NCBI GenBank assembly: GCA_965223505.1
Contig: CBDCWP010000010.1
Location: 1-64,000, forward strand
Direction: 5' to 3'
DNA from: Planctomycetota bacterium
GTDB lineage: Bacteria; Planctomycetota; PLA2; JAEUHO01
DNA length: 64,000 bases
The position numbers and the translations under genes are program-made. Shown piece after piece: positions 1-38,385 of the stretch (its first letter is position 1; each line of letters opens with the position of its first letter). A model generated the notes under the pieces. It saw only the letters and a program-made list of their open reading frames with translations, ran no database searches and was not told where the DNA came from.

Positions 1-294
1 GACCGTGCAAACGATCAAGCAGTTCCTGACTTCGACCTTGCCGGTCAGCGACGAAGAGCCTGCGATCTCGTCTCCACGGCGGGGCGCCAAGATCCCAAGC
101 TGCGGGTCCGTGCGTTTGCATTCCGAGTCGTGCGCCCGTCGAAGCCGTGAGAACTCACGGCCGCGTTGATGAGGGCAAGTCCATAAGTCGTTGGCTTCGC
201 AGGAGTTGCGGGAAATCGAGATTTCTAGCCTGAGAGCGTGAGAACTCACCAGCGGGCTTCCAGGGCGCACAGCCGCGCCAGAAAGGAAGCCCCC

Positions 295-501
295 ATGACT
301 GTCACAAGCAGTAGAGCACCCTCCCGGTTGCTCAAGGTCTCTGAGGTCGCCGAACTCCTCGGCGTCTCTGAGCGAACCGTCTGGTCCCTTCTCGACGCAG
401 GAGACCTGCCCCGCACCCGTATCCGCGGAGCCACGCGAGTCGCTCTCGACGCCGTTCTCGCGTTCATCGAGCGCCGTACGGAGTTGGGAGGTGCCCGATG
501 A
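295..501 (+). CDS. Excisionase-like helix-turn-helix DNA-binding protein (HTH_17/MerR-like)
   Basis: LLKVSEVAELLGVSERTVWSLLDAGDLPRTRIRGATRV is a typical Xis HTH; GAAAGGAAG RBS before ATG 295; upstream of integrase. Confidence 0.85.
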   Translation: MTVTSSRAPSRLLKVSEVAELLGVSERTVWSLLDAGDLPRTRIRGATRVALDAVLAFIERRTELGGAR

Positions 502-1629
502 CCGCGGGGGATCTGCACTTCGACGTCCCCGCGCCCTGGCCCACTCCGGTCGAGCTGACGGATCTGCTGGACGAGACGGTCCACACGCTCACCGACCACC
601 TCGTGCTGTCCGAGCATGCTCCGGAAGCCATCGCGCTGTGGGTCGGGCACACCTACGTCATCGGATCGTGCTACTTCAGCCCGCGGCTCGTACTCACGTC
701 GCCCGTGATGCGGTGCGGCAAGACAACGACGCTCGCGCTGGTCCACAATCTCGCATCTCGCCCGCTCTCCGTGTCGAGCGCCTCCCCTGCGGCAATCTTC
801 CGCGTCATGAAGGCGGAACAGCCGACCTTGCTTCTCGATGAAGCCGAGGGATGGCTGACCAAGGACGAGCTGCTCCGCACGATCGTCAATGCTGGGTACT
901 CGAGGGCGAGCTCCATCGTGATTCGTGTTCACGAGAAGACGTTCGATCCCGTGCCCTTCGACTCGTTCGGCGCATGGCGATCGCACTGATCGGTGCGCCT
1001 GCGCCGACGATCCTCGACCGCTCCGTCGTCATCCCCCTTCGGCGGAAGCGAAGCTACGAGACGGTTCGACGGTTCCGGCAGAAGCGCGTCGAGGAAGAGG
1101 TGTGCCCCTTGCGGCGCAAGTGGGCCCGGTGGGCGAACGACCACCAGGCGGACTTGCTCGGCGCAGAGCCGACTGCCCCGATGAACTCGACGATCGTGCA
1201 GCGGACCTCTGGGAGCCGCTGTTGGCTATCGCCGAGTCCGCAGGCGCGGAGTGGTCGCAGAAGGCCTGCGCTGCCGCAGTCGCGCTATCGCGGGTCCGCC
1301 TTCAGGCGGAACCCGACGACCGTCATCGCTTGCTCGAGGATCTCCAGCACGTCCTCAACGACTCCCACGAGGATCGCTTCCCCAGCAAGAACCTGCTGTC
1401 GCGGCTCCGTGCGATCGAGACGTCGCCATGGGGCGAGTGGAAGCGGGGAGCACCCCTGACCTGCCACGGCCTCGCGAGCCTCCTGAGGCCCTTCGGAGTT
1501 GGTCCCGTGTCGGTCCGGCTGCCGGCCGGCGGGACGCCCAAGGGCTACAAGCGCGAGGACTTGGAACGGCTCTTCGAGCGGTACCTGGATCCTCTGGACA
1601 ACGCCACACCGCCACATGTGGACGCCTAG
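498..1629 (+). pseudogene. DUF3631-type replication protein (P-loop/primase-helicase associated), split by two apparent frameshifts (~975, ~1180)
   Basis: Three consecutive frames give SPVMRCGKTT (Walker A), PTLLLDEAE (Walker B), then MAIALIG..TILDRSVVIPLRRK, then DRAADLWEPLLAIA...LASLLRPFGV...KGYKREDL...FERYL; genuine decay or sequencing indels. Confidence 0.7.
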
Positions 1630-1694
1630 GCGTTTCTTCCCGCCGCCACAACGCAGCGTTCCGGGGCTCCCCGCGGGTGTGGCGTTGTGGCGGC
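1602..1694. repeat. CGCCACA iteron-like cluster including a 13-bp inverted repeat; putative element origin
   Basis: CGCCACA at 1602, 1610, 1644; TGTGGCG at 1678, 1686; GCCGCCACAACGC (1642-1654) pairs with GCGTTGTGGCGGC (1682-1694). Confidence 0.55.
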
Positions 1695-1748
1695 TCCCCA
1701 ACGCTCCGGTGCGACGTCTACGTGCCGTTGAGAGAAAGGTGTATTGAG

Positions 1749-2985
1749 ATGAGGGTCTACCGCCCTGGGTACACATCCAAGAAGGGTGTGAAGAAGAAGT
1801 GCAAGGTCTGGTACGTGCAGACCACGGTCAACGGAAAGCGATTTCGCAAATCCACCGGCTGTAAGGACCGGCGGTCGGCGATCAAGAAGGCCAGAGAGCT
1901 CGTGCTCGCGGCCGAGCGCCTGTCGGCCGGCCTTCACGACCAGCTTGATGTCCATCAGCGCCGCCCGTTGAAGGAGCACCTCGAAGACTTCGAGGCCACC
2001 CTTCGCGCTCGTGGCGTCGGCGAGCAGTACCTCGCGGATCGCATGCGCTGCCTCCGGGGATTCGTGTCCTACGCCGGCTGCAAGCGACTGATCGACCTTG
2101 ATGATTCGAGCGCGAGCCGATGGTTGGCGGAGGAGCGAGGCAAGGGTCTCTCGGCGCGAACGGTCAATCGCAGGTATCAGGCGCTTCGTCAGTTCGGGCG
2201 CTGGCTCGTCAAGGCGAACCGGTTGGAACGAGCGCCGTTCACGACGCTTCGCCCGCTCAACGAGCAAGCCGACCGTCGCCGGCAGCGACGATCGCTCTCC
2301 GCGGACGAGCTCCGCCTACTCTTCGCAGCCGCGAAGTCACGGCCCCTGCGTGCCGCGACGCGCCAGAGAGTGCGCAAAGGTGTGACCGACGCCGAGCGTC
2401 GGCGGTTGGTCAGCCTTGGCGAGGTTCGCGCCATCGTGTATCAGCTTGCCGCTGGCACTGGGCTTCGCCGGAACGAGTTGCGGGAGTTGCGCTGGCGTGA
2501 CTTGGACCTCAAGGCGGGCTGGATCACCGTTCCGGCAGCGACAGCCAAGAGCCGCAAGGACCAACGTGTTCCGCTTCGCACCGGTCTCGTGCAAATGCTC
2601 CGTGCCTTCCGATCGCATGACGCCCGCATGCGCGACCGAGTCATCCCGCCGAAGCTCTTCCCCCTCGCTACGGGCCCTCAAGCGGGATCTCGCGGAGGCC
2701 GGCATCGTGCGACGGGAGCTCGTCGACGTGTCCTCGGAATCGGGGGAGAAGAAGCGTCCCCGTGAGGTGTTCCATACCAAGGACGATCGCGGTCGCGTCG
2801 TCGACTTCCACGCGCTCAGGTACACCTTCGTCACCCAACTGGCAAAGGCCGGCGTGCACCCCCGTATCGCGCAGGCTCTGGCCCGGCACGCCAAGATCGA
2901 GACGACGATGGCCGTCTACACGGACATCCGCGATGGCGACCTGAGGGCCGCCGTCGAGCGGCTCGACGGCTCCCAAGAGGAGTAG
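1749..2985 (+). pseudogene. Tyrosine recombinase/integrase with +1 frameshift in a C-run at ~2660-2664
   Basis: GLRRNEL (R), AKSRK (K), FHALRYT (HxxR), LARH, MAVY (Y) motifs; N-terminal arm-binding-like region; removing one C joins the two frames. Confidence 0.85.
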
Positions 2986-3047
2986 ACCCCAGGCTAGAAT
3001 CAGCGCTGGCGTCCACTACGTACTCGGGGTAAGCCCTTGAAGTCGGC

Positions 3048-4355
3048 GTGAGAGCCGAGAAGGGAGGCCCCGTGGGTCCGAGTCGAGGGACATCCTCGAA
3101 GTTCGCGAAGCGTGTTGCGGCGGCACTGAAGGCGCTGGGAGCGCCGGATGCCGATCCGGCCGCACGCGACGACGTGGACCGCCTGCTGGATAAGGTCGAG
3201 AGCGAGGGGGAGGTCAGCGCCGAGGAACTGTCCGCCCTCAGGCTGGCCGCGGGCCTTCTTGCCGACGTGGAGAGCCAGGAGCTCGCTGCCAGGATTTGCG
3301 AAGGCCTGACGGAGCGGCTGGTCGAGGACGGCTGGGTCGCCGCTGCGGAGGTCGTGTTCGACCGCCTCGCGGATGTCGATCTCGGGAGACTCGAGTACCC
3401 GAAGATCCTGAACTGGGCGCCGACCGTCGCGTCGGTCGGTCGCCTCGCGAAGGCCGTGGACGGGACCACGAAGCCGATCTCAGAGGCTGTTGCCGGAAAC
3501 CCCTCGGCCTGGATCGGCAGCGCCGTTGGAGAGTGGGCGCTCCTTCGGGGCGATGCAAAGGCAAGACGTGCCACGGCCAGCTTGGCCGTGGATCGCCTTG
3601 TGGAAGGGGACTCCCGTAGCCGCGAGCTCATTCGTGAGAGCTTGCGCGGCGCCAAGGCGCAAGCTCTAGCTGCAGTCTTCTGGCGCCGAGCCGCCAAGGC
3701 AGCCGAAGCAGCTGACGCTCTCTGGCGGTTGGTGCTTGCCGATAACGAACTCGCGGTGAGTGAACCTCGACGTCTTGCCAAGACGATCGCGACTGCGGCC
3801 TCTGTGGGAGAACTCCTGCCGGCAATAGCCGCGCTCCGAGAGCTGACGACTTCAGATCTCGCGACTCGAGCGGGGCTCGCCCTCGCGATGATGCGCTTGC
3901 AGATCAGCGAGTCAGGCATCGTCGAGGGGCGTCGGATCCCGACAACGGTTGCTGACTACTTGGCAAAGCCACAGGTCCAGGGAGCGAAGGATGCTCTGTC
4001 GGCTGGGGAGGATTCGTCTTCCGAGGCTCGGTTCGTTCTTTCCGCGGCGGATCTCGGTGCCGTGCTCGCCAGTGTGTCCGAAAGCAGTCTGTCGCCGGCG
4101 CAGGCTGAGTGGGTTGTTGATGCGCTCGACGCGGTCGGGAGGGGCGATGACCCCGAGCTGATCGTCACAGCGATGGCGCAGAACCTGGGACTCGAACCCG
4201 TAGGCGCCGTAGGGGACCAAGTCGACTTCGACCCGATGAAGCATGATGGCGATGGGAAGGCGCGACCCGGCGACTTGGTGCAGATTCGCAACTCCGGTTG
4301 GCGCCTCGCGTCAGGGGTGATCGTGCGACATCCGCGAGTGGGCGCGAGCGAGTAG
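3048..4355 (+). CDS. Alpha-helical hypothetical protein with C-terminal GrpE-like beta domain
   Basis: C-terminus LGLEPVGAVGDQVDFDPMKH...GDLVQIRNSGWRLASGVIVRHPRV resembles the GrpE FDPxxH...GY.l.g.vlR.a.V head; start uncertain. Confidence 0.6.
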   Translation: MRAEKGGPVGPSRGTSSKFAKRVAAALKALGAPDADPAARDDVDRLLDKVESEGEVSAEELSALRLAAGLLADVESQELAARICEGLTERLVEDGWVAAAEVVFDRLADVDLGRLEYPKILNWAPTVASVGRLAKAVDGTTKPISEAVAGNPSAWIGSAVGEWALLRGDAKARRATASLAVDRLVEGDSRSRELIRESLRGAKAQALAAVFWRRAAKAAEAADALWRLVLADNELAVSEPRRLAKTIATAASVGELLPAIAALRELTTSDLATRAGLALAMMRLQISESGIVEGRRIPTTVADYLAKPQVQGAKDALSAGEDSSSEARFVLSAADLGAVLASVSESSLSPAQAEWVVDALDAVGRGDDPELIVTAMAQNLGLEPVGAVGDQVDFDPMKHDGDGKARPGDLVQIRNSGWRLASGVIVRHPRVGASE

Positions 4356-4372
4356 AAGGAACGGGGAAACCG

Positions 4373-5566
4373 ATGTACACGGAGCCGAGTCTCGCGATCG
4401 ACATGGGCGCGTCCTACACCAAGGTCGCTTATCGACCGCGCCTGGATGAAGATGCGCACCAGGCGCCTCGAGTCCCGAGGCGAAGAGCCTTCCAGGTCCC
4501 TACGGAAGTTGCGACGTTCAGGACGCGCCGCAATGAGACCGTGATGTGGGTTCCCAGCGCCGTGGCCCACGACAAGGAGCGGGATCACTGGTCCTTCGGG
4601 GAGGAGGCCGTTGCGCTCGACGGAACTCCCGGCGTGAAGGTCGACATCAACTGGAAGCGGCAGCTCTACCTGGCACCGAAGAGCGAGCGCCTCCGGCGCG
4701 TCTGCGGGAAGTTCTTATCCTGGGTGCTCGACGACGCGGCTCGACGCTGGGAACTGCCCGCTACGGTTCGTGTTCGTGTTGCTGTACCCGCACTTGAACA
4801 CCAAGCCGAGTTCGAGGAGGCGATTCGGAAGTCCGTTGGCTCCTTCCCGGGCATGATCTCATTTGCCACAGAGCCTCGGTGTAACGCGATCGGGTCCTTC
4901 TCGGAGGGGCGCAACGGGATCCACCGCCACGGCGGCTCGCTCTATGTCAGCCGCGGCAGGACCGTAGGTGGCCCCGAGACTGGAGGTTCCAACGGCGAAC
5001 TCTGGAATGCCCTTCGCGACGGAGACGGCCACGTCTACCGCCCGCTGTTGCTCGACCTCGGGGCGTTCACCGTGGATGTTGCGCGGCTTGAGCTCGACAC
5101 CTCGGAAGACGACATGCCCGAGGCCAAGGTCGACTGCCGAAGCCGAGAGGTCGGCCTCGTCAACGAGGTGGACCGGCGCGTCTTCGATCACATCCGGGCG
5201 CGTTGGGGCGGATACGACGCACGCAAGGAGCTCGGCCTGGCGGCGCAGGAACAAGCCAAGTTCCGTCTCTACGCTGGAGGATCCCTCGCGTTCCCTGGCG
5301 GCGTCGCGATGCAGGACGACCAGGACAAGATCGTCCTCTCCGAGATCCTCGACGGGTACGTCAGTAGTGCATGGGAGCTCCTGGCTCCGTACCTGGAGGA
5401 GGGAGATGAGCAGGTGATTGCGACCGGCGGTCCTGTCGGCGCCCCTCTCATTCGCCAACGTCTCGAAGCGAAGGCCGGCGCCGGAGGCGTTCGACTGTAT
5501 GTGCCGAGTGGTGGGCGTTACTGGACTCGAACCAGTGACCCCCAGCTTGTCGAGCTGGTGCTCTAG
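4373..5566 (+). CDS. Hsp70/actin-fold ATPase (nucleotide-binding domain only)
   Basis: Phosphate-1 LAIDMGASYTK, connect-1 EPRCNAIG, phosphate-2 LDLGAFTVDV, adenosine ATGGPVGAP; last 58 nt overlap the tRNA antisense. Confidence 0.7.
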   Translation: MYTEPSLAIDMGASYTKVAYRPRLDEDAHQAPRVPRRRAFQVPTEVATFRTRRNETVMWVPSAVAHDKERDHWSFGEEAVALDGTPGVKVDINWKRQLYLAPKSERLRRVCGKFLSWVLDDAARRWELPATVRVRVAVPALEHQAEFEEAIRKSVGSFPGMISFATEPRCNAIGSFSEGRNGIHRHGGSLYVSRGRTVGGPETGGSNGELWNALRDGDGHVYRPLLLDLGAFTVDVARLELDTSEDDMPEAKVDCRSREVGLVNEVDRRVFDHIRARWGGYDARKELGLAAQEQAKFRLYAGGSLAFPGGVAMQDDQDKIVLSEILDGYVSSAWELLAPYLEEGDEQVIATGGPVGAPLIRQRLEAKAGAGGVRLYVPSGGRYWTRTSDPQLVELVL

Positions 5567-5585
5567 CCAACTGAGCTAAACGCCC
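5509..5585 (-). tRNA. tRNA-Val(GAC)
   Basis: Reverse complement GGGCGTTTAGCTCAGTTGGCTAGAGCACCAGCTCGACAAGCTGGGGGTCACTGGTTCGAGTCCAGTAACGCCCACCA: acceptor stem, D loop, CCAGC/GCTGG anticodon stem with GAC, GTTCGA T loop, encoded CCA. Confidence 0.97.
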
Positions 5586-5826
5586 ACCCAGTGAGCGGGA
5601 GCATATACCGCCACCGCCAATCCGCCCAAATCACGCCCAACCACACCCCGACACGAGGTCCTCCGACCCCATTTCGCCCCATGAGCCCATTTCTCAGGCT
5701 GGACCGCCATTCAATGGGCCTTCCCATCGCGACCTCTCGCCACCCACGGGGTATCAGATCGCGCGCCCGCAGCGTGCAAGTCGTACAATCTCCACGTCTA
5801 GGTCCCCCTCTGCAGAGATTCTCGCC

Positions 5827-6609
5827 ATGACCAACATCGGCCCCATGCTCCTCATCAACGTCGTCCTCGTCGCCGTCGGCATCGGCGTCTACCACGTCGC
5901 CACCGCCGACGACTCCGCCGGATCCGGCGGTGACTTCATCACCGAGAAGACCACCGTCATCCACGACGACGGCAGCGACGGCCCCATGCTCGACGGCGGC
6001 TCCGCCCGCAACGACCGTCGCATCTCCGAGCTCGAAGCCGAGATCGCGTCCCTCAAGGAGCTCCTCGGCAAGCGCCACGCCTCCGGCGGCTCCTACGACG
6101 CCTCCGGCAACGGCGGCGGCTCAGGCGACATCCTGCCCTCCCTCGACCTCGACGTCGGCGGCACCGAGGAAAAGCCGACCTTCGACGAAGACTCGCTGAC
6201 GGCCATGAAGAAGTACATGGACGAGATCCGCCGACGCGACGCCGAAGAGCGCCTCGTCAACGGCCTCGAACGCCAGCTCGGTCGCCTCGACGTCAACCTC
6301 TCCGAGGAACAGAGCGAAGCCGTCATCAAGGCCACCATCGCCGCCCGCGAAAAGCGCATGGCCATGTTCCGCGAGATGGGCCAGCGCGGACGCAACCTCG
6401 ACGAAGCCGGCCGCGAAGCCTTCCGCGAAGAGATGCGCCAGGCCAACGACAAGCTGCGTGAGGAATGGTCCACAACCGTCTACAGCCTCGTGCCCGCCGG
6501 CGACGCCGAGAAGATCGTCGAAGGCATGGGCCGCTCCATCAGCTGGGGCGGTCGCGGCGGCTTCGACACGGGCGGTCGCGCCGGCGGCGGACGCAACCGC
6601 AACCGGTAG
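5827..6609 (+). CDS. Hypothetical membrane-anchored/exported coiled-coil protein
   Basis: N-terminal hydrophobic segment, strong host-like codon bias, G/R-rich tail. Confidence 0.75.
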   Translation: MTNIGPMLLINVVLVAVGIGVYHVATADDSAGSGGDFITEKTTVIHDDGSDGPMLDGGSARNDRRISELEAEIASLKELLGKRHASGGSYDASGNGGGSGDILPSLDLDVGGTEEKPTFDEDSLTAMKKYMDEIRRRDAEERLVNGLERQLGRLDVNLSEEQSEAVIKATIAAREKRMAMFREMGQRGRNLDEAGREAFREEMRQANDKLREEWSTTVYSLVPAGDAEKIVEGMGRSISWGGRGGFDTGGRAGGGRNRNR

Positions 6610-34930: not shown

Positions 34931-36343
34931 ATGTCCACTGCACCCACCGCACGTTTGAAGATCCTGGTCGTCGAGGACGACGAGGCCCACGGCGAGGTCA
35001 TCGCCGACGTCCTCGAGTCCGAGGGCCACCGCGTCGCCCTCGCAACCAGCGCCGCCGCCGGGATCGAGGCCCTCGAGAAGCCGGGTATCGACCTCGTCGT
35101 CACGGACCTGCGCCTCCAGGACGCCGACGGCCTGGAGATCGTCGAGCGCTGCGGCGCCCTGCGCGGCGACCATGCCGTGCCCCAGTGCGTGGTCGTCACG
35201 GGCTACGGAACGGTCGACGGGGCCGTCGCGGCCATGCGCGCCGGCGCGCTGCACTACCTCCAGAAGCCGCTGGACGTGGACATCCTGCGCGAGACCGTCC
35301 GGTCGGCCGCCGAGCGCATCGCGCTCGAGGTCGAGAACCGCGAGCTGCAAGTCACGCTCGACAAGTCCTTCGCCTTCCCCGGCATCCTCGGTCAGACGCA
35401 GGCCATGCAGCGCATCTTCGACGTGATGAACCAGGTCGTCGAGACGGACGCCACGATCCTCATTCGCGGCGAGTCCGGCACCGGCAAGGAGCTCGTCGCC
35501 CAGGCGCTGCACCGCGCCGGCCCGCGTCGCGGCAAGCCGTTCGTGCCCCTCAACTGCGCGGCCCTGGCCGAAGGCGTGCTCGAAAGCGAGCTCTTCGGAC
35601 ACGAGGAAGGCGCGTTTACGGGCGCCAGCGCGCAGCGCAAGGGGCGCTTCGAAGCCGCGCACGGCGGGACGCTGTTCCTCGACGAGATCGGCGACATGCC
35701 TCTCGCCACGCAAGCGCACCTGCTGCGCGCGCTCGAGTCCGGCGAGATCGTGCGCGTCGGCTCGAACGACCCGCTGCAGGTGGACGTGCGCGTGATCGCC
35801 GCGACCAACCAGGACCTGGACGCCATGGTCGCCGAGAAGCGCTTCCGCGAGGACCTGAGCTTCCGACTGCGTGTCGTGCAGATCGACCTGCCTCCGTTGC
35901 GCGAGCGCCTGGCCGACCTGCCGATGCTCGCGGAGCATTTCCTCGCCGAGGCCGCGGAGAAGCACCGCAAGCCTGCGCGCAACTTCGGACCCGACGCCAT
36001 GGACCGGCTCATGAGCTACGGCTGGCCGGGGAACGTCCGGGAGCTCAAGAACGCGATCGAGAGCATGGTCTTGATGTCGCGCGGTCCGCTGCTCACCGCC
36101 GAGCAGATTCCGGCCTACGTGAAGCCGAGCGAGGAGCGGCCGGAGAGCTTGCGTAGTCTCTCCGGGCTCGTACTGGAAGACGTCGAACGCGCGCTGATAT
36201 CGAACACTTTGCGCGACGTCGGCGGCAATCGGGAACGCGCTTCGCAGATGCTGGGCATCAGCACCCGAACGCTGTACCGGAAAATCAAGGCCTTCGGCCT
36301 GTCGAGGCGCCCGAAGGGTGTCGAATCGGCAAGGTCGGACTGA
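34931..36343 (+). CDS. Sigma-54-dependent response regulator (NtrC family)
   Basis: Receiver [39 protein letters not shown]-terminal Fis HTH. Confidence 0.96.
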
Positions 36344-36444
36344 CGGACCCTGCCGAATCGGCACGTCCGCGGTCGCATCGAACGTCGCAGGGCCGGTCTC
36401 CGAACAGGGTTCGGACGGTGGTTTTTGAAGAAAAAGGAGCCGAA

Positions 36445-38385
36445 ATGGCCGAACGGATCATTGGTATCGACCTCGGAACGACCAACAGCGTCGTCGCCGT
36501 GATGGAAGGCGGCGAGCCGCGCGTGATCGTCAATCAGGACGGCCATCGCATCACCCCCAGCGTCGTCGCGTTCACCGAGGGCGGCGAGCGGTTGGTGGGG
36601 CAGGCGGCGCGCCGTCAGGCCGTGACGAACCCCGAGAACACGGTCTACAGCATCAAGCGCTTCATGGGCCGCCGGCACAACGAGGTGGAGTCCGAAGAGA
36701 AGCTCGTCTCGTACCGCATCGTCGGGGCGCCCGACGAGCTCGTGAAGTGCGACATCCGCGGCAAGACGTACACGCCCCCGGAGATCTCCGCGATCATCCT
36801 CCAGCACCTCAAGAAGGCCGCGGAAGACCACCTCGGTGGGCCGGTCAAGGACGCGGTGATCACGGTCCCGGCGTACTTCAACGACAGCCAGCGCCAGGCG
36901 ACGAAGGACGCCGGTGTCATCGCCGGCCTCAACGTGCGCCGCATCCTCAACGAGCCGACGGCGGCCGCGCTGTCCTTCGGCATCAACAAGAAGGAGACCG
37001 GCACCATCGCCGTCTTCGACCTGGGCGGCGGCACGTTCGACATCTCGATCCTCGAGCTCAACGAGGGCGTCTTCGAGGTCAAGTCGACCAACGGCGACAC
37101 GCACCTCGGTGGTGACGACTTCGACCAGATCCTGCTCGACCACGTCGCGGACGAGTTCAAGAGCGAGCACGGTATCGACCTGCGTCAGGACACGATGGCG
37201 CTGCACCGCGTGCGCGAGGCGTGCGAGAAGGCCAAGATCGACCTCTCGAGCTCGCCGCAGACCGACATCAACCTGCCGTTCATCACGGCCGACGCCGCCG
37301 GTCCGAAGCACCTCACACGCAGCATCACCCGCGCGAAGTTCGAGCAGCTCATCAGCGAGACGCTCGACCGCGTCCGCGGACCGTGCCAGAAGGCGATCGA
37401 GGACGCCGGCATCGCCGCGTCCGAGCTCGACGAGGTGCTGCTCGTCGGCGGCTCGACGCGCATCCCGCTCGTCCAGACGGTGGTCAAGGAGATCTTCGGC
37501 AAGGAAGGCAACAAGACCGTCAACCCCGACGAAGGCGTCGCGCTCGGCGCCGCGATCCAGGCCGGCATCCTGTCGGGCGACGAGACGCTGCAGGACCTGC
37601 TCCTGCTCGACGTCACGCCGCTGTCGCTGGGCGTCGAGGTCCAGGGCGGCATGATGCACACGCTCATCGAGCGCAACACGACGATCCCGACCAAGAAGGA
37701 CGAGGTGTTCTCGACCGCCGCGGACAACCAGCCGCAGGTCGAGGTGCACGTCCTGCAAGGCGAGCGGCCGCAGGCCTCGGCCAACCGCACGCTCGGCAAG
37801 TTCATCCTCGACGGAATCCCGCCGGCGCCGCGCGGCATGCCGCAGATCGAGGTGACGTTCGACATCGATGCCAACGGCATCCTCAAGGTGTCCGCCAAGG
37901 ACAAGGGCACCGGCAAGGAGCAGAACGTGGTGATCGAGTCGTCCTCGGGTCTCTCCAAGGACGAGGTCGAGCAGATGCGCAAGGAAGCCGAGTCGCACGC
38001 CGAGGAGGACGCCAAGTTCAAGGAGGTCGGCGAGGCGCGCAACAAGGCTGATCACGCGCTGCACGAGGTCGACAAGCTCCTGAGCGAGCACGGCGACAAG
38101 GCCGACGACGCGATCAAGAGCACCATCGAAGAGAAGAAGAAGGCGCTCGAGAGCGTGAAGGACGGCGACGACCCCGCGGCGATCGAGGCGGCCATCAACG
38201 ACCTGATGACGGCCATGCAGGAGATCGCGAAGAAGGTCTACGCCGAGGCGCAGGCGGCCGATCCGGCTGCCGCCGCCGCAGCGGCCGCCGCCGCGGGCGG
38301 TGTGCCGGACGCCGGGACCGAGACCACGTCGGCCGAGAGCGACGAGAACGTCATCGACGCCGACTTCGAGGTGAAGGAGACGTAG
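36445..38385 (+). CDS. dnaK: Chaperone DnaK
   Basis: [42 protein letters not shown]-terminal DADFE. Confidence 0.99.

Follow-up and report, generated by a model that had tools for sequence, protein, structure and literature searches.

Hsp70 machines are usually described as a triad in which a J-protein and the exchange factor GrpE accompany an ATPase that bears a client-binding domain. The nucleotide-binding domain (NBD) of eukaryotic Hsp70 is also served by exchange factors built of armadillo repeats, namely HspBP1, Fes1 and Sil1. An HSP70+GrpE theme has been described in predicted conflict systems centred on GAP1-N2 GTPases, a subset of which, in the available text of that study, encodes a second HSP70 without a peptide-binding domain (Kaur, Burroughs, Iyer & Aravind, 2020; PMC7159879); CnuD of type III CoCoNuT, a predicted defence system, is described in the available part of its report as combining an Hsp70-like domain with HEAT-like repeats (PMC11090510). 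Here we analyse two adjacent genes, ORF1 and ORF2, that lie near the start of a 64,000-nucleotide stretch of DNA from a Planctomycetota bacterium (hereafter the window; the first 64 kb of contig C10 in an assembly of 5.15 Mb, 44 contigs and 92% completeness). The two genes are real and represent a conserved variant of the Hsp70-GrpE theme that currently goes unannotated, in which a predicted Hsp70-type ATPase core is encoded directly after a large repeat-like protein that ends in a GrpE-like domain.

ORF2 (4373..5566, + strand) begins with the ATG at 4373, 17 nt after the ORF1 stop codon, and encodes 397 residues, a length that leaves no room for a substrate-binding domain or lid; searches for either within ORF2 gave no match. 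The protein contains the phosphate-1 (D10, G12), connect-1 (E167, P168), phosphate-2 (D228, G230, T233, D235) and adenosine (T351, G352, G353) motifs of an Hsp70-NBD-like ASKHA ATPase, and these residues are invariant or nearly so in the family. An exhaustive HMMER search over 1.84 billion representative sequences returned 142 relatives at E<=1e-3, 54 of them at E<=1e-10; most are 410-470 residues long, a few reach about 760-940, and the family profile spans 431 positions. When a profile of 50 members was compared with the PDB, all 60 matches listed were Hsp70 NBDs (E 7.1e-11 to 8e-7), including BiP, Hsp70-1A, Hsc70, Ssb1 and the DnaK NBD of 1dkg. Run over the six-frame translation of the genome, the ORF2 profile recovered just two sequences at E<=10, ORF2 itself and DnaK (36157-38382 of the window, E 1.7e-6); MreB, which is present on contig C38, was not matched. 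Judged by these comparisons, ORF2 groups with Hsp70 NBDs, apart from ParM and MreB. A preliminary description of the locus had named a grouping with ParM/MreB partition proteins as one outcome that would count against its reading, and both the PDB and the own-genome rankings favour Hsp70. The gene layout given there (a helical protein of 435 residues with an FDPxxH...GW end, then a four-motif ATPase without a substrate-binding domain) was borne out by the scan of open reading frames and by the family alignment.

Additions to the ATPase core were seen in several relatives. A C..C.G.G zinc-knuckle, typically C.C.GGNKDC..C.G.G, directly follows the core in 45 of 144 proteins (142 being ORF2-family representatives). 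About 12 forms, those of ~760-940 residues, carry an extra, unassigned C-terminal region of ~350 residues that in many ends in F(F/Y)D(I/L)PLQWY, and one family member has a GYF_2 domain.

A locus search of one-per-species genomes with a 10-sequence alignment of the ORF2 family yielded 41 loci, distributed over Verrucomicrobiota, Planctomycetota (many of them Gemmataceae), Gemmatimonadota, Myxococcales, Binataceae and Bacteroidota, together with two metagenome-assembled genomes labelled Enterobacteriaceae and Bifidobacteriaceae; one further locus came from 400 other genomes scanned in the window's phylum, giving 42. A gene with a GrpE-like tail lies directly upstream on the same strand in 39 of the 42 (38 by alignment, and L050 by clustering), showing that the pairing reported in the preliminary description is conserved in several phyla. 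The partner tail spans ~65 residues with the consensus N.G...(I/L)G..G..V.FD...HE...G..PGD.V.....GW.L......(K/R)A.V. The three exceptions are L032, which reaches a contig end, L051, which has no partner, and the Verrucomicrobiales locus L026 (108-6236), where the ATPase gene directly follows a gene for a 1624-residue Lipase_3-SLOG-CHAT protein.

Other genomes of the same phylum (G008, G013, G016, G018, G021 and G023; loci L076-L085) hold extra GrpE paralogues that Pfam does detect, some of them forming the tail of proteins of 360-654 residues (654, 434 and 360). At L077, L078, L082, L084 and L085 the paralogue lies directly upstream of an Hsp70-like gene (519-737 residues), in the same order as ORF1 and ORF2, which fits descent of the pair from a grpE-hsp70 gene pair.

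ORF1 occupies an open frame of 435 residues (3048..4355, + strand). Translation most likely begins with the GTG at 3072: a strong ribosome site of the AAGGGAGG type precedes it by 5 nt, and the database copy P0003 (427 residues) starts there. The C-terminal end carries the pattern FDPxxH...GW...R..V, and the GrpE-like tail claimed for ORF1 in the preliminary description was upheld by profile comparison. A profile of the 39 partner tails, searched against 177,635 PDB sequences, placed GrpE first and second (3a6m, E 0.0019; 8gb3, E 0.011), the remaining matches being human GRPEL1 (E 0.81) and three unrelated chains (E 0.73-4.9). Aligned by hhalign to 19 true GrpE proteins of the same phylum, the tails scored a probability of 96.3% (E 1.5e-9) over 61 columns, and the matched template positions (99-163 of 166) correspond to the last helix and the beta-domain of GrpE. 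In the tails, one His (H399 in ORF1) is invariant, and G-W (G417/W418) and A.V are nearly so; they align with the conserved H, G-Y and A.V columns of GrpE. The last ~85 residues of ORF1 are thus, by sequence, homologous to the GrpE C-terminal beta-domain, in diverged form.

Upstream of the tail, ORF1 is predicted to form an alpha-solenoid. An AlphaFold2 (AF2) model built on an alignment of 39 sequences reached a mean pLDDT (the program's own per-residue confidence) of 82.6, whereas the single sequence gave an unusable model (mean pLDDT 43). The model shows 20 helices of ~4-22 residues: stacked short helices form a HEAT/ARM-like solenoid over residues 17-346 (3096..4085, +), and the GrpE-like domain at residues 350-433 (4095..4346, +) consists of two helices (350-379) followed by six short strands (382-433). 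Fold searches returned only HEAT/ARM-like entries at noise level, and the term is therefore used here as a description of shape, with no claim of homology. To the long-form (~420-residue) partners at L017, L013, L012, L019 and L029, ORF1 is homologous over nearly its full length (for example, to residues 71-412 of the L017 partner). Word-indexed homologue searches found nothing for ORF1, even with a 14-sequence alignment, and one distant relative (P0002) for ORF2; ESM Atlas returned only unnamed clusters for ORF1, and two metagenome scans for close relatives, one with P0004 alone and one with ORF2 plus P0004, found nothing.

The copy of the ATPase gene in the window is truncated at the C-terminus. 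Its last 19 codons (from 5509) and its stop codon are the antisense of a tRNA-Val(GAC) gene (5509..5585, - strand; ARAGORN), the integration target of the island on which the pair lies. The family's final helix, L.RLATA.GGAS, is absent from ORF2 because these last codons are tRNA antisense; the R and G columns of the helix are kept in at least 90% of 50 aligned sequences, and it occupies the connect 2 position, the fifth ASKHA motif. With the gene running into the attachment (att)/tRNA junction and losing its last conserved helix, the window copy of the pair is probably crippled, and inactive in the integrated state. A six-frame search of the 5.15-Mb assembly did not recover the L.RLATA.GGAS segment (best E 0.03). 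The preliminary description had overlooked this truncation, along with the broken integrase and DUF3631 frames described below.

The junction contains a 49-bp att-like stretch (5507..5555) with exactly one other copy in the genome, 100% identical, at G000:C44:273243-273291 (L007 5244-5292). This second copy holds the 3' part of tRNA-Val, no tRNA being present there, and adjoins a minus-strand repeat-protein gene and two transposase-like open reading frames (L007 7737-9119 and 9881-11059); it may be the far att site of the island or a remnant of another event. A continuation of ORF2 behind this copy was excluded, since the continuing frame stops after 11 codons. Three hints suggest that the att core could lie inside the ATPase gene. 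In P0004, the closest relative (41% identical), ..QTSDCQL.. aligns with the tRNA-encoded ..RTSDPQL.. of ORF2 and is followed by 45 more residues that run through the conserved helix. A 686-letter contig from public sequencing run X2 shows a gapless match to ORF2 that extends to 5506, immediately ahead of the 49-bp repeat, and then continues for 267 letters off the window, while a second X2 contig departs from the window at 5492 and continues unlike it. Were this arrangement real, integration would cost the ATPase its last helix, so that the excised form alone would encode a complete enzyme and activity would be coupled to the state of the element. The full scenario, in which the pair is a self-contained Hsp70-derived switch serving as a mobile conflict or defence module, with client recognition transferred from the lost substrate-binding domain to the solenoid of the GrpE-tailed protein and with the att core inside the 3' end of the ATPase gene, seems to us improbable.

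Bases 1-5555 of the window form the right-hand end of an integrative island targeting tRNA-Val(GAC). Its genes, in order, are an excisionase/AlpA-type helix-turn-helix gene (238..501, +; Pfam HTH_17, E 1.8e-13), a DUF3631 gene (498..1629, +), a tyrosine integrase gene (1755..2985, +), ORF1, ORF2 and the oppositely oriented tRNA-Val(GAC). The DUF3631 gene is spread over three frames (498-974, 975-1179 and 1180-1629), all three segments being open (Pfam DUF3631, E 5.3e-33 on frame 925-1629). The catalytic domain of the integrase is split between two frames near 2660, with Phage_integrase profile positions 24-86 in frame 1251-2765 and positions 125-169 in frame 2416-2985. ORF1 and ORF2 are the only genes between the integrase (end 2985) and the tRNA gene, and to that extent the statement that they are the sole cargo holds; it cannot be extended to the whole island, because the window, like contig C10 itself, begins within the island. 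The G+C content at the three codon positions (0.74/0.52/0.73 in ORF1, 0.71/0.48/0.76 in ORF2) fits coding sequence and differs from that of host genes: third-position G+C (GC3) is 0.69-0.86 in island genes versus ~0.90-0.95 in the host genes downstream. Scans of 2800-5900 for promoters and terminators found none. In line with the preliminary description, the pair is additional to the housekeeping machinery, for the genome has a single canonical DnaK in the window (36457-38241, +; PF00012, E 5.7e-255), 31 kb from ORF1/ORF2, and a canonical GrpE on another contig (C39:340997-341485).

Related contigs in public runs X1-X3, from one study, carry a copy that is ~96-97% identical to the window, with 61 differences and no gaps over 2950-4728. 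Relative to the window, the X1-X3 contigs have an additional base at each of the two DUF3631 frame breaks (after 974 and after 1179), and the X1 and X2 contigs have one base fewer at 2660, in a run of C, the integrase frame break. Single-base differences thus sit exactly at the breaks. The genes may have decayed recently, or the assembly may be in error at short base runs, two origins that the data do not distinguish. Among the substitutions listed, the third codon position accounts for 14 of 20 in ORF1 (binomial p 0.0009), 10 of 12 in the DUF3631 gene and 5 of 7 in the integrase gene; all three were therefore under purifying selection until recently.

The surroundings of the family differ between its branches. 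Long-form and related loci often lie in defence or mobile DNA, with neighbours that include SspB, type I and IIG restriction enzymes, DruE with a PLD nuclease, DzbA, HEC-07, PDC-S59, PDC-M55C, a TraG-like protein and DUF932. A PADLOC match (E<=1e-4) was present nearby in 10 of the 18 non-syntenic loci scanned, a count that rests on hand-picked neighbours with no background control. These matches are DzbA (L011), SspB (L012, E 1e-103), a type IIG enzyme (L013, E 4e-98), a IIG fragment (L019), MTase_II (L035), HEC-07 and PDC-S59 (L037), mad2 (L038), PDC-M55C/HEC-05 (L039), DruE and a PLD nuclease (L040, E 3e-72 for DruE) and a type I restriction enzyme (L048, E 1e-175). At L040 (168-11257), from a member of the Planctomycetaceae, the pair is flanked by a 1499-residue DruE-like helicase (E 3.2e-72) and a PLD-family nuclease resembling ZacB/DrmC.

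At least 18 of the 42 loci instead occupy conserved housekeeping synteny (10 his, 4 M23 peptidase and 4 CNNM). The short-form pair directly follows hisD/hisC/hisB, whole or in part, in 10 loci of Gemmataceae and Isosphaeraceae (L033, L036, L041-L044, L046, L047, L049 and L050), an arrangement found across genera, and an ACP phosphodiesterase gene follows the pair in L041, L043 and L045, the last on a contig that starts at the partner gene. In four Verrucomicrobiales loci the order is M23 peptidase, partner, ATPase, in three of them followed on the opposite strand by a gene of the tRNA 2-thiouridine synthase type; four further loci lie among CNNM transporter and oxidoreductase genes. The long-form branch thus resides on DNA rich in mobile and defence genes, and the short-form branches are core-genome genes in bacteria of the PVC (Planctomycetes-Verrucomicrobia-Chlamydiae) group. 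With regard to the defence role suggested in the preliminary description, the context is mixed.

The interpretation we favour, with moderate confidence, is that ORF1 and ORF2 form a conserved two-gene module drawn from the grpE-hsp70 theme, pairing an NBD-only ATPase with a solenoid protein that bears a GrpE tail, and that the island copy is probably inactive. The comparisons above demonstrate that the proteins are homologous to Hsp70 and GrpE, that their genes are strictly adjacent in a fixed order and that ORF1 has been under purifying selection. Taken with the preservation of the catalytic residues and the almost invariable adjacency of the two genes, the homologies speak for an ATPase with a dedicated exchange factor. 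According to this model, the GrpE-like tail would dock on the ATPase and speed the release of ADP, the ATPase, served by an exchange factor of its own, would act as a nucleotide-driven switch, and the solenoid of the partner would hold the target in place of a substrate-binding domain. A complex prediction for ORF2 with ORF1 residues 335-435 gave scores of 0.00 and 0.23 against a mark of 0.32, values that we count neither for nor against such docking.

Several results weigh against this interpretation or limit it. The homology of ORF1 to GrpE is restricted to the C-terminal domain, and neither hhalign nor the model detected the long dimerising N-terminal paired helix and four-helix bundle of GrpE in ORF1. 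Fold searches, made with the whole 435-residue ORF1 model only, gave no GrpE match for the tail. Pfam has no match for ORF1 or for its last 84-100 residues (E<=10 and E<=1, respectively), its GrpE family (PF01025) matches none of the 39 partner tails, and a genome-wide search with PF01025 finds only the canonical GrpE on C39. No Pfam family matches ORF2 at E<=10, and the Pfam HSP70 family (PF00012) is not matched by 45 ORF2 relatives (E<=0.01). ORF1 and ORF2 themselves have no match in Pfam, NCBIfam or PADLOC (E<=0.1 to 10) and no PDB sequence match (E<=10). Of those 45 relatives, 15 give sub-threshold Pfam matches to MreB-like_C, ParM_N, Alp7A_like_C, MreB_Mbl or Actin. As to the state of the island copy, the genome is 92% complete, and the part of it that was not assembled could hold the missing end of ORF2. 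Moreover, all three frame breaks fall within or next to short base runs and may be assembly errors, in which case the island is perhaps less decayed than it appears.

As to biological role, one alternative, which is unlikely but deserves serious weight, is a specialised housekeeping machine, chaperone-like or cell-biological, in which an Hsp70-type switch serves a single client or structure and the island copy is an incidental passenger that was moved and damaged. The stable synteny of the his, M23 peptidase and CNNM groups across genera argues for it, as does the zinc-knuckle of the 45 proteins, presumably reminiscent of the zinc centre of DnaJ and, as such, pointing to a chaperone-type ancestry. 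A core function in the phylum would predict a wider distribution than was found, however, the family being rare and present in only 1 of the 400 other genomes sampled there, and the repeated location of the long-form branch beside defence and mobile genes fits poorly with a housekeeping role. A second alternative, in line with the preliminary description, is that the pair is a stand-alone or accessory anti-phage or conflict system carried as island cargo, in which the solenoid would sense an invader and the ATPase/exchange switch would transmit or execute the response. The window copy agrees with such a role in being cargo of a tRNA-Val island with GC3 of 0.73-0.76 versus ~0.95 in the host, as do the PADLOC neighbours of the long-form and related loci, the Lipase_3-SLOG-CHAT protein ahead of the L026 ATPase, and the HSP70+GrpE theme, sometimes with an NBD-only HSP70, of GTPase-centred conflict systems in the available text of PMC7159879. 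Weak matches to the PADLOC candidate PDC-M61 point the same way (PDC-M61B in 10 of 50 relatives, best E 2.4e-7; PDC-M61A in 1 of 14 partners, E 0.0012). In the literature searched, PDC-M61 is named in one paper only, whose available text reports its presence as negatively correlated with prophage number in P. aeruginosa isolates (bioRxiv 10.1101/2024.04.30.591980) and includes no test of the system. Nevertheless, domain library searches found no effector domain (nuclease, TIR, pore or protease) in either protein, the window proteins have no PDC-M61 match at E<=0.1, and the matches of their relatives are weak and fall mostly in the C-terminal part of the ATPase. Moreover, the 18 or more syntenic loci lie outside any defence setting, the neighbours of the remainder were picked by hand without a background control, and tblastn of ORF2 against 72,556 plasmids and 50,697 phage records found nothing. 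On balance, we regard a defence role as doubtful.

A third account would make ORF2 an actin-like filament former of the ParM/Alp/MreB type and ORF1 its adaptor, serving the maintenance or segregation of the element. The ASKHA fold is common to actins, the location is a mobile island, and the sub-threshold Pfam matches noted above are to actin-like families, although every one falls below its curated cut-off (best 24.2 bits versus 27.8). The Hsp70 NBDs that make up all 60 PDB matches listed, the recovery of DnaK but not MreB from the own genome, and the GrpE-type domain of the partner all argue against it; iterated centromere-like repeats were not found beside ORF1/ORF2, and to our knowledge integrative islands need no partition system. 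This account is therefore very improbable.

Compared with canonical Hsp70 and GrpE, the pair described here is alike in the Hsp70-type motifs of ORF2 and in the homology of the ORF1 C-terminal domain to the GrpE beta-domain, and it shares with the GrpE-Hsp70 paralogue pairs of its phylum the gene order of exchange factor, then ATPase. It is unlike them in that ORF2 lacks a substrate-binding domain, no J-protein gene lies nearby, and ORF1 has an alpha-solenoid of ~330 residues instead of the long paired helix of GrpE; the Pfam HSP70 and GrpE models reach neither protein. A related catalogued candidate is PDC-M61 (PDC-M61A + PDC-M61B, PADLOC-DB v2.0.0), likewise a two-gene system, weakly matched by some relatives of ORF2 and its partner but not by the window proteins. 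The PDC-M61B model has 588 positions compared with ~430 in the ORF2 family, and the matches cover mainly its last ~100 positions; by sequence, the relationship is at the superfamily level. The terms PDC-M61, Hsp70 and GrpE are absent from the main text of the Payne et al. 2024 preprint (10.1101/2024.01.29.577857). Given this related candidate and the HSP70+GrpE conflict theme in print (PMC7159879, in its available text), the word 'undescribed' in the preliminary description was too strong. The systems in that study are built on GTPases, FNIII-repeat proteins and DnaJ/TPR fusions and are, in the text available, mostly from actinobacteria and firmicutes; none of these components occurred among the neighbours scanned. 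CnuD, in the available text of PMC11090510, keeps an NBD/substrate-binding unit with degenerate ATPase motifs and is tied to McrBC-like GTPases, and GrpE does not occur in that text. In the pair described here, by contrast, the ATPase family has conserved catalytic residues, and it is the partner protein that carries the repeats.

The likeness of ORF1 to HspBP1, Fes1 and Sil1 is one of analogy only, with no homology claimed, the exchange-type domain of ORF1 being the GrpE-like one and not the repeat. Pfam and NCBIfam do not recognise the family, nor does PADLOC recognise this branch of it, and its genes are for this reason currently annotated as hypothetical. Its division between defence islands and housekeeping loci makes function directly testable in two settings. 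Of the Hsp70 triad, all that is left in this family is the ATPase core and an exchange-type domain, the latter fused to a large repeat scaffold. If the proposed mechanism is correct, the Hsp70 nucleotide cycle would here be re-used as a bare molecular switch, and the pair would provide a bacterial counterpart of the eukaryotic repeat-type exchange factors.

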